From Escherichia phage VEc20, in sequence record MN022785.1: a DNA stretch of 64,000 bases; one strand, given 5' to 3'. A program made the position numbers and the translations under genes. Positions 2,449-24,050 of this stretch are shown piece by piece. A model generated the notes under the pieces. That model was not told the DNA's origin. It saw only the letters and a program-made list of their open reading frames with translations, and made no database searches. Each line of letters opens with the position of its first letter. The stretch's first letter is position 1.

Positions 2449-4267
2449 ACTGGCTCATCCATTCTTTACGAAGGTCAGCATTATCTCCCATGAGCATTTC
2501 AAAAAGCTCTTTCCAGTTCTCAGGAAGTTTAACAACATCATATACTGGATTTTGAATCATCTCACGATATTCAGATTTTTCCAAAGAGCCAAGTCCTTTA
2601 ATATAACGGATGCTATGTTTAGGTAGAGCATCTTTAGCACTCTCATATTCAGCGACTGTATAAAACCATTCTTGTTTTTTACCAATCTGTGCGATGATTA
2701 CAGGAGTTTTGACAAAGCGAATTCGTCCTTGCTCAAACAGTTCTGGCCAATTACTAAAAAATCCAAGCAGAGAAGGATAAATGCTTCCTAGGCCATCATG
2801 GTCAGCATCAGTCATAATAGCGATATTATGATAATTCAAGTTTTCAGCTTTTTCACCGAGAACTAATCCAGTGATTGCGCAAATATCAAATAGTTCTTTG
2901 TTTTTAAGCATATCTGCATAAGACATACCCCAACTGTTGAGAACTTTACCGCGCAATGGATAACCACCGTGAAGTTCTTTATCACGAACATCAATAAGAT
3001 ATCCGATAGCCGAATCACCCTCAGTCAAGAAAAGAGTAGTGTCAGCATCTTTACCACAAAGATTCGCTTTGATATGTTTATGAACCTTAGCTTTAGATGC
3101 CTTTTTAGCTGCTTTAGTTTCTGCTGCTTTTTCTGCCGCCAATTTACGAGCCAAAGCAGCTTCAATAATTGGCATCAGAATTGCTTCATTATTCAAAATA
3201 GCACGTGAAATCTTTTTAGCATCAAGCTGAATATGACTACGGATTTCACCAAATGGAGAAGTCAAACGCTCTTTAGTTTGAGAATCAAATCGCATGTTTT
3301 TCATATCACGAACAAACATAACGATTGTCAAACATTCTTTAACGCGTGCTTTAGTCACATCAATTTTGAACTTACGTTTGATTTGTGGAATAAGGTCTTC
3401 ACAAATATCATCCATAACGCAGTCAATATGATGGCCACCATTCTTAGTATGAATGTTATTGACGTATGTTAATTGACGAAAACCATCCGGTGAACGACCA
3501 ACCGCAATAGAGCAATTTTCTTGTTCTTGAACAATAGCATGCTCATCATATTGGCGTGCATATTTCTTAAAATTGCCCTGAACCTTTTTACCATTAAAGG
3601 TAAATTGAATATCAGGATAAACTACTGCAAGTGTCTGGAGACGATCTAGTGTAATGTCAAGATAAACTTGGGACAGCTCATTAGTTTCAAATGACATAAA
3701 ATCAGGAATGAAAGTAACACGAGTTCCTTTCCATTTTCCAGGAATAGTTTCCCATGATTTATTTTCCATGCCATTTGAACAACGAACTACAATATTATTT
3801 TGACCATCACCAGTTTCACCGACAAACATCACAGAAAAAATGTTTGTCAAACTAGAACCAACACCATTCATACCGCCAGTGACGCGTTCTTTATCATCAC
3901 CAAAGTTACCACCTGCTTTTGGAATAGTCCATGCAGCAACAGGACCAGGAATTTCTTCACCGGTAGGTGTTTTAACCATCGCTTGTGGAATACCGCGACC
4001 GTTATCTTCAACTGTTACTTGATTGTTTTTAATAGTAACATTAATTTTATTTGCGAATTTAAACTTAGTACGAATACCTTCATCTACTGAGTTATCGATA
4101 ATTTCATCAATAAGCTTAACAAGACCAGGTACATACTGAACACTTTCCCATTTACCAAACAGAAAGCGCTCATGCATTTCATTAGCGGAAGAGCCAATGT
4201 ACATGCCGCTACGCTTTTTGATATGTTCAATATCGCTCAGAATTTTAATTTCATTCTTAATCATCAC
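2447..4267 (-). CDS. 39: DNA topoisomerase II large subunit, uninterrupted (gp39 + gp60 equivalent in one ORF)
   Basis: 606-aa ORF; GHKL ATPase motifs (VEDNGRGIP, GGNFGDDKERVTGGMNGVGSS) plus TOPRIM-like C-terminal part; no internal gap or stop. Confidence 0.9.
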   Translation of the reverse strand: MMIKNEIKILSDIEHIKKRSGMYIGSSANEMHERFLFGKWESVQYVPGLVKLIDEIIDNSVDEGIRTKFKFANKINVTIKNNQVTVEDNGRGIPQAMVKTPTGEEIPGPVAAWTIPKAGGNFGDDKERVTGGMNGVGSSLTNIFSVMFVGETGDGQNNIVVRCSNGMENKSWETIPGKWKGTRVTFIPDFMSFETNELSQVYLDITLDRLQTLAVVYPDIQFTFNGKKVQGNFKKYARQYDEHAIVQEQENCSIAVGRSPDGFRQLTYVNNIHTKNGGHHIDCVMDDICEDLIPQIKRKFKIDVTKARVKECLTIVMFVRDMKNMRFDSQTKERLTSPFGEIRSHIQLDAKKISRAILNNEAILMPIIEAALARKLAAEKAAETKAAKKASKAKVHKHIKANLCGKDADTTLFLTEGDSAIGYLIDVRDKELHGGYPLRGKVLNSWGMSYADMLKNKELFDICAITGLVLGEKAENLNYHNIAIMTDADHDGLGSIYPSLLGFFSNWPELFEQGRIRFVKTPVIIAQIGKKQEWFYTVAEYESAKDALPKHSIRYIKGLGSLEKSEYREMIQNPVYDVVKLPENWKELFEMLMGDNADLRKEWMSQ

Positions 4268-21838: not shown

Positions 21839-22681
21839 TTAATCAACTGCTATTGGATGAATAGCATTAAACTTATGAAATGCTTCTGATTTTTCTTTAC
21901 GTGAAACGCACATGCGAAGAACCTTTAATGGCTCGTCTTCTTCACCCAACGATTTTCGTTTTTCAATATTAGAAGTTTTCCAACGAGCTTGCTCTGGAAA
22001 CTCTCTATTGATTTGCTCAAGCGCTCTATTATGTTTAGAATTACTACGAATTGAACTGCACCCGCCAGGAGCTTGTGCTTTTCCAGATACAACCAGATAT
22101 TTGAACAAGGCCAAATGCGGATAACCTTGATTAATTAAATTGAGAAATGCATACATATCTTCGCACAAATCAATTTTTCCATACCCAATTTGTTCTGTCG
22201 TAAGTTTTCCAAGGTCATACCATGTATTCGTGAATCCATATGAGTTTTCACGATAATTGCCCCAAGATGAAGTAATTTTAAAAATTGGTAGACGAGCATG
22301 ACCGTGATAATACCCGCAATCCATGGCATCTTCAACGTATTGAATTAATTCATAGAACTGTTCACGAGTTAATTGATTAATTTTATCTACACGCCGTTTA
22401 TCGTCTCTCTTTCGTATTGAACTCATACGAATAGTAGTATCATCATCAATCATCCAGATTCGTTGACCTGCATACATATCAGTAATTGCTTTACGAGTAC
22501 CGGCAATTCCATTAACATCATCAGGAATAGTTACAATTTTAGCTCTAGACCCATAAGCATCATAATAAGCTTTTTCTTCGTGTTCACGCACTACAATATG
22601 GGGTTCATAATCAGTCGGAAACATATTAAGGGCAGAAACTGCCCCTACACGCTGATAACTTGGAATTACGAATTGAATCAT
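21839..22681 (-). CDS. GT-A-fold glycosyltransferase (DxD motif), possibly a beta-alpha glucosyltransferase acting on HMC DNA
   Basis: 280-aa ORF at the beta-gt position; WMIDDDTTIRM motif; not the 351-aa T4 beta-gt. Confidence 0.6.
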   Translation of the reverse strand: MIQFVIPSYQRVGAVSALNMFPTDYEPHIVVREHEEKAYYDAYGSRAKIVTIPDDVNGIAGTRKAITDMYAGQRIWMIDDDTTIRMSSIRKRDDKRRVDKINQLTREQFYELIQYVEDAMDCGYYHGHARLPIFKITSSWGNYRENSYGFTNTWYDLGKLTTEQIGYGKIDLCEDMYAFLNLINQGYPHLALFKYLVVSGKAQAPGGCSSIRSNSKHNRALEQINREFPEQARWKTSNIEKRKSLGEEDEPLKVLRMCVSRKEKSEAFHKFNAIHPIAVD

Positions 22682-23319
22682 TTAAGTGCCTTACATTTGT
22701 CAAAATGGTATCTTGTCATATTTGGCCCACGTCCTTTTAGTCCGCAATGCGGACATATTTTTTCTATCAAATTATGAGGTTTTCCTTTACGATTTTTAGA
22801 CATCGTTTCTTTAATTATTTTAGCTTTTTCTACGCCAAAAATTTCTTCATAAGTTTTACCAGAATTTTCCTTGGCTCGATTTATAATTCCATATGCCTGC
22901 TCATTTTTACCATACATTGGATTACCTTCGCCTTTCATTCTTTTAGAATGATCAGGACGCTTGATTCCACGAAAGGCATTTCCGCACTTATATCTTTCTT
23001 CTGGAGATAGTTTTTTACCGTACATTCCATTTAATTTGCCTGGAAAACTTCCTCCCCATGCTTCATTCTTTAAATTATATGAATCCGGACAATTAGCAGC
23101 ATCTAAACAAGTTAAAATAATTTCTTCAACCTGTCTAAACATTGGTCCTTCATATAATATTTCTTTATTAAAGGATTTTATTCCATATTTCTTTTTAGCA
23201 TGTTGCCAAACTACACCCGAACCATCATAATTCGGGTTGTGACCATCATGACTTCCTATATACCACTTTTTAGTTTTAGGATGTTTATACTTATAAACAT
23301 GTGGCACATTTACTTCCAT
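22678..23319 (-). CDS. GIY-YIG homing endonuclease (Seg-like) with NUMOD3-type DNA-binding repeats
   Basis: 213-aa ORF; N-terminal VYKYKH...KWYIGSHDG; repeats GKLNGMYGKK and GEGNPMYGKN; overlaps both neighbours. Confidence 0.75.
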   Translation of the reverse strand: MEVNVPHVYKYKHPKTKKWYIGSHDGHNPNYDGSGVVWQHAKKKYGIKSFNKEILYEGPMFRQVEEIILTCLDAANCPDSYNLKNEAWGGSFPGKLNGMYGKKLSPEERYKCGNAFRGIKRPDHSKRMKGEGNPMYGKNEQAYGIINRAKENSGKTYEEIFGVEKAKIIKETMSKNRKGKPHNLIEKICPHCGLKGRGPNMTRYHFDKCKALK

Positions 23320-24050
23320 TTTCCAGTATAATCCTTTTTAGCAATATGAGTCTCACCGGTGTTCCACCAATGGTCAACTAAATAAAACTGATTTTCGTAC
23401 ACATGAAGACTTCCAACGTTCCATATAATAGAACCTGCTTTATATTGCCGCGATGGGTCGCCTGCATTCAAATCAGATACTAATTTATCTAGTACGTATT
23501 TTTGCCAAGCATAATCATTACGATAGCCTGCCCAGCAATCATTGCTTCTCATGCTAACAACCGCATTGACTTTCTTATCACGAATCAGGTACTGTACTGT
23601 ATTAGTACACATGAAATCTGACATACCATCTTTATTGTAGTCAAATTGCATGGATGGACGAGTATAAATCATGATACCACGTCGAGAATCAGGATTTTGA
23701 CCAAGTTCAGCTAAACACATATCATACTGGGCATAGTTATCTTCTGACCAAATAGCCCAACCATAATTCGAGTTAATTTCGCCTTTAGAAGATGCTACCT
23801 GCTGCCAAATCTTTGGTGTTTCACCTGGAATATCTTTAACGAACAAGCTCTTAGATTTATACCATTCAAGTTCACGCTGAATGTATTCATCATTAAGAGC
23901 GCCAAAAATAAACGGTTCATCTGCTATAAATGATGCGCCAATAATTTCAATAGTTTTAACGCCAGTTTTATCAACTACGAAATCTTTTTCTTTTAATGCA
24001 AGCCCCAAATGAAGACGGATTTCTTCAACTGTCATAGAGTCATTAATCAT
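23310..24050 (-). CDS. 42: dCMP hydroxymethylase gp42
   Basis: 246-aa ORF; thymidylate-synthase-like fold; size matches T4 gp42. Confidence 0.9.
   Translation of the reverse strand: MINDSMTVEEIRLHLGLALKEKDFVVDKTGVKTIEIIGASFIADEPFIFGALNDEYIQRELEWYKSKSLFVKDIPGETPKIWQQVASSKGEINSNYGWAIWSEDNYAQYDMCLAELGQNPDSRRGIMIYTRPSMQFDYNKDGMSDFMCTNTVQYLIRDKKVNAVVSMRSNDCWAGYRNDYAWQKYVLDKLVSDLNAGDPSRQYKAGSIIWNVGSLHVYENQFYLVDHWWNTGETHIAKKDYTGKWK

Follow-up and report, generated by a model that had tools for sequence, protein, structure and literature searches.

A predicted Seg-like GIY-YIG homing endonuclease between gene 42 and a glucosyltransferase gene of Escherichia phage VEc20, and its linked gene 42 allele

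In T-even phages, free-standing homing endonucleases give rise to localised marker exclusion and to mosaic genomes. To our knowledge, the characterised free-standing set is limited to the T4 members and a few others (SegH, Hef). Here, we describe a 213-amino acid (aa) open reading frame (ORF) located between gene 42 and a glucosyltransferase gene (gt) in a 64,000-nucleotide (nt) stretch of Escherichia phage VEc20 (MN022785.1), which as a whole is referred to below as the window. On the comparisons below, we consider it likely that this ORF encodes a T-even Seg-type homing endonuclease that would cut T2/T4-type gene 42 and carry a resistant gene 42 allele along with it.

Described endonucleases and the VEc20 locus

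In phage T4, segA is located at the uvsX/beta-gt junction and its product cleaves uvsX (PMC2988022). The T4 gene order uvsX-segA-beta-gt-42 (T4 record; PMC2988022, Table 1) agrees with an earlier reading of the window made from its letters only (the sequence-only reading), which placed segA on the other side of gt. SegA and the VEc20 ORF product are alike in being free-standing (221 aa vs 213 aa) within a shared uvsX-gt-42 neighbourhood, and both have a PHROG 314 assignment and a Y-x-G-S-G motif, show no Arg27 of the I-TevI type in the alignment, and share 44% identity in the catalytic core. SegA contains NUMOD3, which in the ORF product scores below threshold. The similarity is limited to that core (residues 18-84) and one short stretch, however, and SegA lacks the C-terminal CCHC finger that the ORF has. 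A reading of the ORF as T4 segA moved to a new position was considered and rejected: the locus is different, the similarity is partial, and true segA orthologues occur separately. Two T2-like phages, PD112 and CE1, encode a segA orthologue between beta-alpha-gt and uvsX (positions 2701-3252 of their extracted loci, L085 and L086), 98% identical to T4 SegA over 184 aa, and in both the ORF on the gene 42 side is absent. The window has no segA, and its uvsX-gt spacer is 77 nt. Because PD112 and CE1 carry segA without the ORF and the window carries the ORF without segA, the two are independent elements. The suggestion that the ORF is a distinct insertion is upheld by its other locus, by the empty sites of T2 and T6 and by this independent occurrence.

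T4 SegC sits at gene 5.1/5.3 (PMC2988022), has low identity to the ORF product and is not its orthologue. Seg-like endonucleases, including SegC and those of KVP40 and of Acinetobacter and Aeromonas T4-like phages, share 26-36% identity by tblastn and occupy other genomic positions, and they are not orthologues either, although several Seg-like proteins of non-coli phages match over the full length (residues 4-210), C-terminal finger included. T4 SegF and SegG, which cause marker exclusion, cut within the adjacent gene at some distance from their own coding sequences, and markers on either side are co-converted (PMC2988022). The event proposed here would resemble theirs, with a break in an adjacent conserved gene hundreds of base pairs (bp) from the endonuclease gene and donor markers co-converted; their targets are 56 or 32, whereas the predicted target of the ORF product is gene 42. 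I-TevI shares the catalytic-domain fold and a modular, "beads on a string" layout with a zinc finger, but is encoded in the T4 td intron and is only ~20% identical. In I-TevI the finger is part of the linker and a helix-turn-helix forms the DNA-binding end, whereas the finger of the ORF product is C-terminal and no helix-turn-helix was detected. By sequence comparison, then, none of the T4 seg genes is orthologous to the ORF: resemblance to SegA and SegC stays within the catalytic core and the NUMOD region, and the locus and the C-terminal finger are different. The ORF product is a previously uncharacterised relative of the T4 Seg enzymes, ordinary in kind. A literature search, which covered the subscription literature in part, found no account of an endonuclease at the 42/gt junction, and the names segH-segK returned unrelated papers only.

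The ORF and its neighbours in the window are:

22678..23319, minus strand: free-standing Seg-like GIY-YIG homing endonuclease gene, 213 aa (PHROG 314 and phage-record survey)
21839..22681, minus strand: beta-glucosyl-hydroxymethylcytosine-alpha-glucosyltransferase (beta-alpha-gt) gene, 280 aa, downstream neighbour (PHROG 842, E = 1e-88; Pfam TAGT)
23310..24050, minus strand: gene 42 (deoxycytidine monophosphate hydroxymethylase), upstream neighbour and inferred target gene (Pfam Thymidylat_synt)

The ORF starts with ATG and its translation begins MEVNVPHVYKYKHPKTKKWYIGSHDG (ORF listing of the window), and the listing agrees with the sequence-only reading on the span, the 213-aa length and an overlap with both neighbours. 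The 3' end of gene 42 reaches 10 nt into the ORF, and the ORF stop codon and the glucosyltransferase ATG share four nt, ATGA, at 22678-22681. The minus-strand gene order is 41, 40, uvsX, the 280-aa glucosyltransferase, the 213-aa ORF, gene 42, imm and 43. The window is that of a T2/T6-like Tequatrovirus; the 2.4 kb around the ORF are 99.4% identical to Escherichia phage vB_EcoM_ACG-C40, and the adjacent glucosyltransferase is of the type found in T2/T6-type phages (PHROG 842). The 64-kb window contains no paralogue of the endonuclease ORF elsewhere.

Copies of the ORF are present in 77 phage records at 95-100% identity. Against diverged homologues, the ratio of nonsynonymous to synonymous substitution (dN/dS) is 0.12-0.45; synonymous divergence is saturated and these ratios are rough, but they indicate that the endonuclease is under purifying selection in diverged lineages. 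Since at least 99% identity is kept in 71 of the 77 records and dN/dS is low, we conclude from sequence conservation that the 213-codon ORF is a genuine gene and not a chance ORF.

Family membership and domain layout

PHROG 314, "homing endonuclease", matches residues 1-211 of the ORF product (E = 2.3e-31), and the T4 segA product is assigned to PHROG 314 too (T4 record). BLASTP aligned T4 SegA with the ORF product over the core described above (E = 3e-11), Y-x-G-S-G motif included, and SegA itself matches Pfam PF01541 GIY-YIG at 3e-9. T4 SegC aligned over residues 7-138 at 35% (tblastn, E = 2e-7). A family alignment was built from the ORF product and 30 of 70 homologues from a 5.8-billion-protein set. 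Among these 31 sequences, Pfam matches were to SegE_GIY-YIG (PF19835) in 11, to GIY-YIG (PF01541) in six and, taken at E up to 0.01, to NUMOD3 in 20. The family profile matched the I-TevI catalytic domain in the PDB (1LN0, E = 0.006) and pairs Y9, Y20, E65 and N82 of the ORF product with Y6, Y17, E75 and N90 of I-TevI, the spacing between the two tyrosines being equal and in keeping with the ~10-11 residues of the superfamily motif. Y20 and G22 are invariant in the family, and Y9, E65 and N82 are at least 90% conserved. Two single-sequence searches added little: the sole NCBIfam match, TIGR01453, scored 24 bits against a cut-off of 56, and phmmer against PDB sequences gave only a chance match to a sugar-binding protein.

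An AlphaFold2 model of the ORF product had a mean predicted local distance difference test score of 87, with 85-98 per 10-residue block over residues 1-90. Its top three Foldseek matches in the PDB are I-TevI catalytic domains (1MK0/1LN0; probability 1.0), with template modelling scores of 0.63-0.66 (target-length normalised) and a root-mean-square deviation of 2.9-3.1 over 93-99 columns. The GIY-YIG domains of UvrC and PD-T4-3 ranked lower.

The identity proposed in the sequence-only reading, a free-standing GIY-YIG homing endonuclease, is thus supported by PHROG 314, SegA similarity, the Pfam matches of family members and the I-TevI profile and fold. The curated GIY-YIG profiles match only through these relatives: the query itself has no Pfam GIY-YIG match, an outcome that the sequence-only reading had named as counting against this identity. 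The GIY-YIG-like N-terminus (VYK...YIG) reported there is present as V8-Y9-K10 and Y20-I21-G22. We conclude, on the combined sequence and model evidence, that the 213-aa ORF belongs to the GIY-YIG/Seg family and that the other evidence overrides the missing direct Pfam match.

Sequence and model predict a GIY-YIG nuclease domain at the N-terminus, followed by two NUMOD3-like repeats for DNA binding, a helical linker and, at the C-terminus, a CCHC zinc finger:

23044..23304, minus strand: GIY-YIG catalytic domain, residues ~6-92 (Y9, Y20, G22, Y31-G33-S34-G35, E65, N82; SegA core, I-TevI profile, Foldseek)
22900..23040, minus strand: two NUMOD3-like repeats, residues ~94-140 (NGMYGK, NPMYGK; sub-threshold in Pfam, NUMOD3 matches in the family)
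22690..22764, minus strand: C-terminal CCHC zinc-finger-like module (C189-x2-C192 ... H205-x3-C209; conservation and model)

Both NUMOD3-type N(G/P)MYGK repeats reported earlier are there, at residues 97-102 and 133-138, but Pfam NUMOD3 scored the second alone and below threshold (18.0 bits vs a gathering score of 20.4, E = 0.0027); the best NUMOD3 E-value among the 31 family members is 4.5e-10. The C-terminal module is the most conserved part of the family, with C189, C192, R203, H205, F206 and C209 invariant in 31/31 sequences, and residues 186-206 model as a beta-beta-alpha unit (AlphaFold2). This module matches no Pfam family and has weak PHROG matches to other phage endonuclease families.

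Insertion site, distribution and the linked gene 42 haplotype

A query of the joined flanks returned 478 records with gene 42 next to the glucosyltransferase gene, each matching over 80% or more of the query length. Carriers of the ORF span 1440 bp across the flanks and ORF-less records span 808 bp. The junction is therefore polymorphic among related T-even genomes, as the sequence-only reading had proposed to check, with 77 carriers vs roughly 400 empty sites (an estimate, 478 minus the ORF carriers) that include T2 and T6. At the ORF-less junction the gene 42 TGA overlaps the gt ATG. The insertion is base-precise, between ...TGGAA and ATGATTC..., and its position is this stop/start overlap of T2, T6 and most relatives. 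A three-way MAFFT alignment of the window, T2 and Escherichia phage BYEP02 smeared the T2 gene 42 3' end over the insertion, and a gene-by-gene alignment was used instead. GenBank labels for the ORF are inconsistent: mostly "hypothetical protein", and otherwise "homing endonuclease", "site-specific intron-like DNA endonuclease", "SegD", "similar to segC" or "putative endonuclease segE".

Some copies are damaged. Single-base frameshifts in homopolymer runs are present in REP2/REP3, PYps5T and Shinka and reflect either early decay or sequencing error. Only a C-terminal remnant of the endonuclease gene is kept after gene 42 in three IMG/VR loci and in Klebsiella phage vB_KpnM_GF. In the three loci (L068-L070, positions 3183-3392) the remnant is a 67-aa ORF, which overlaps the gene 42 end and encodes nothing but the zinc-finger module (...CPYCAKIGRRPNMTRYHFNKCK); being intact in all three, it might be retained rather than merely decaying. 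In vB_KpnM_GF (MK421971.1), gene 42 is joined at ~nt 640 (...IIWNAPSP*) to the last ~33 endonuclease codons (...PHNLIKRSCPHCGKVGSGPNMTRYHFDKCKDKK*; ~1490-1600 of locus L097), and the deletion, directly ahead of gt, has taken away the C-terminal end of gp42 along with the bulk of the endonuclease. That record is a partial genome, and an assembly error is possible.

Diverged homologues also follow gene 42. A homologue in Klebsiella Jiaodavirus (70% identity) has the order 42-homing endonuclease gene-beta-alpha-gt, and that of Yersinia phage MHG19 (65%) lies directly after gene 42 and is followed by a T4-type 351-aa beta-gt. In two uncultured T4-like clades (IMG/VR), homologues with 58-62% identity follow gene 42 and precede an unrelated 116-aa ORF. 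In all, homologues follow gene 42 in five diverged lineages irrespective of the next gene. Because they adjoin gene 42 with differing downstream genes, gene 42 and not the glucosyltransferase is the constant partner. Divergence among these lineages is similar for the endonuclease and gp42 (57-69% vs 51-75% aa identity). In three metagenomic loci (L014, L016 and L017, ~3239-3267), gene 42 and the endonuclease homologue are set apart by a 29-nt spacer in which the T4 late-promoter consensus, TATAAATA, occurs without mismatch; both spacer and motif are absent from the window copy.

Window and T2 gene 42 are ~98% identical in the first third and mostly >90% identical to ~nt 480, beyond which the differences cluster in three patches (P1, P2 and P3); the last codons differ too. 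Ten ORF-carrying sequences were compared with six T2-type ORF-less sequences for fixed differences. At 40 sites the two groups share no allele, and 40/40 of these fall in gene 42 nt 502-740, with none in the 767 nt of glucosyltransferase compared. The linked region comprises:

23311..23549, minus strand: ORF-linked haplotype, gene 42 nt 502-740 (3' third), 40 sites (carriers vs T2-type ORF-less)
23523..23549, minus strand: patch P1, gene 42 nt 502-528, RSND-CWAGY vs RSND-VVFGF of T2/T4/T6 (17 fixed differences in 27 nt)
23445..23457, minus strand: patch P2, gene 42 nt 594-606, DPSRQ vs DSTRQ (window/T2 alignment and fixed differences)
23388..23397, minus strand: patch P3, gene 42 nt 654-663, YENQFY vs YSRHFY (covaries with P1 across the gp42 family)

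P1-P3 are present in 15/15 ORF-carrying sequences inspected, despite differing haplotypes just upstream of nt 500. The window-type P1 52-mer was found in 75 records. Five ORF carriers missing from this megablast list were considered as possible holders of the T2-type allele, which was rejected: they encode CWAGY, and silent changes break the 28-nt word. All partial recombinants found lack the ORF and keep P1, namely SP21535 (P1 only) and PD112 and CE1 (P1-P3), the last two with a T2-type gene 42 end and an empty site. The reciprocal class, the ORF with T2-type patches, was not seen among the sequences inspected. Among 80 IMG/VR gene 42 loci, xWAGY is encoded in 11/11 that have the ORF or its remnant, and no VVFG-type locus has the ORF. 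In two metagenomic clades, divergence between carrier and ORF-less sequences starts at gene 42 ~nt 405-490. The linkage of this allele to the endonuclease element accounts for a gene 42 with a foreign-looking patch in its most conserved motif in ~15% of Tequatrovirus records.

Two further observations concern gp42 itself. Across 80 diverse loci (L004-L083), xWAGY pairs with Gln in an (H/F)xY-E/S-x-Q-F/Y motif and VVFG(F/Y) pairs with Arg-His, which points to a structural contact close to the active site; in SP21535 the two types are naturally mixed (CWAGY with SRH). Gene 42 of BYEP02 (OR757454.1; positions 1898-2715 of locus L002) contains a 77-nt tandem duplication of ~nt 566-642 in which copy 1 is window-type (DPSRQ) and copy 2 T2-type (DSTRQ), with a frameshift that results in two annotated coding sequences. 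BYEP02 has no endonuclease ORF and a T2-type junction; the duplication was left by aberrant break repair between alleles or else is a mis-assembly from a mixed lysate.

Proposed mechanism and alternative explanations

For the ORF product, we infer nuclease activity, a target site, and homing with marker exclusion, as follows. In a mixed infection, the enzyme would cut both strands of an endonuclease-less genome within the 3' third of its gene 42, our best guess for the site being at or near the RSND-VVFGF-RND coding sequence, ~200-250 bp upstream of the insertion point. Repair by recombination with the carrier genome would then copy the donor gene 42 3' end. Long repair tracts would also transfer the endonuclease gene, and short ones would leave ORF-less genomes with P1. 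The donor gene 42 allele (CWAGY and the two further patches) would protect the carrier from self-cleavage. Carrier haplotypes and ORF-less partial convertants are consistent with such preferential inheritance and flanking co-conversion. As the ORF-linked markers are in gene 42 only and not in gt, any marker exclusion should concern the gene 42 3' third, which narrows down the gt/42 region named in the sequence-only reading. P1 is the best candidate for the immunity and target determinant, since it is the farthest marker from the ORF yet never separated from it, is the sole patch kept in SP21535, and is situated in the most conserved motif of the hydroxymethylase.

A more specific version, which we put forward tentatively and would not call probable, is that this Seg lineage specifically targets the coding sequence of the catalytic RSND-VVFGF-RND motif from ~220 bp away and, by co-conversion, spreads an alternative active-site allele (CWAGY and ENQ) of an essential enzyme of DNA modification through T-even populations. 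If true, a selfish element would be reshaping the gene 42 active site across Tequatrovirus, Jiaodavirus, a Yersinia phage and uncultured T4-like phages. The general picture of how such elements work is unchanged by the window ORF. What the element adds is a gene 42-associated endonuclease lineage absent from T2, T4 and T6, in phages isolated on clinical, food-borne and veterinary hosts, together with a prediction, concrete enough to be tested, of which site is cut and which allele confers immunity; the origin of the gene 42 patch also bears on phylogenies and on engineering of the 42/gt locus.

At each end of the inserted gene a stop/start codon overlap is preserved, which makes co-transcription with the two neighbours probable. 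Transcription of the ORF probably reads through from gene 42, and its translation may be coupled to theirs.

Several results weigh against the proposed homing explanation. The 77 ORF-carrying records are close relatives and cannot be counted as 77 separate observations; they represent few independent events. Neither PF01541 nor PF19835 matched the full ORF or its isolated N-terminal domain, even at E = 10 (Pfam). A counterpart of I-TevI R27 is missing from the profile alignment, where R27 falls in an insertion, and the ORF product has no Arg between Y20 and G46. In the clade of L014 and L018, a carrier and an ORF-less sequence are identical over gene 42 nt 485-744 and differ at nt 245-485, so the target site is not pinned to P1. 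Across the gp42 family, P1 and P3 covary (WAGY with ..Q, VFG[F/Y] with.RH), and epistasis within gp42 could therefore hold both patches together without an immunity role. Upstream of the ORF, the exact T4 late-promoter consensus is absent and there is no convincing MotA box; a sigma-70 promoter and terminator scan gave no excess over shuffled sequence; and RNA structure around the start codon is not stable (z = -0.12), with no regulatory hairpin assigned.

With regard to catalysis, the sequence-only reading had named missing catalytic residues as a point against itself. The Arg27 equivalent alone is missing, while Y9, Y20, E65 and N82 are present, and alignment showed that T4 SegA shares this absence. 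SegA is a biochemically proven endonuclease (PMC2988022); because an active nuclease does without this residue, its absence is not disqualifying.

The covariation of P1 and P3, which is independent of the ORF, the identical gene 42 3' ends of L014 and L018 and the base-precise insertion at the ATGA overlap would all also fit an active homing endonuclease of another specificity. Its recognition site would span the empty gene 42/gt junction, insertion alone would immunise the carrier, and the gene 42 patches would be donor passengers kept by linkage and gp42 epistasis. We regard this as unlikely. Carriers fall into several haplotypes in the sequence leading up to nt 500, yet over the 240 bp from P1 to the ORF every one of them keeps all 40 linked sites. 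Genomes that lack the ORF do show crossovers in this stretch (SP21535, PD112 and CE1). Moreover, the downstream side varies by lineage (beta-alpha-gt, beta-gt or an unrelated gene), so a junction-spanning site would not be conserved.

It is very unlikely that the ORF is a stranded or domesticated relic, no longer mobile and either catalytically dead or kept, e.g., as a DNA-binding regulator or a translational coupler for gt: the missing Arg27 equivalent, the lack of a promoter of its own in the promoter scans, stop/start overlaps that make gt expression potentially dependent on the ORF, the frameshifted copies and the zinc-finger-only ORFs persisting in L068-L070 would fit a relic, but T4 SegA is active without that arginine (PMC2988022), purifying selection extends over the full length in diverged lineages, the four catalytic residues are at least 90% conserved in the family, and presence/absence polymorphism with a tightly linked flanking haplotype is the product expected of an active element.

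Two minor observations concern the downstream neighbour. The beta-alpha-glucosyltransferase (21839-22681) matches Pfam PF20691, "TET-associated glycosyltransferase" (E = 3e-10), which ties the gentiobiosyl-forming enzyme of T2/T6 to the wider TET-associated glycosyltransferase family. Within the first 55 nt of its coding sequence, a 9-bp GC-rich hairpin followed by a T-rich run (22627-22647, minus strand) resembles a terminator. The same hairpin occurs in T2, and a terminator in this gene is annotated in two related phage records.

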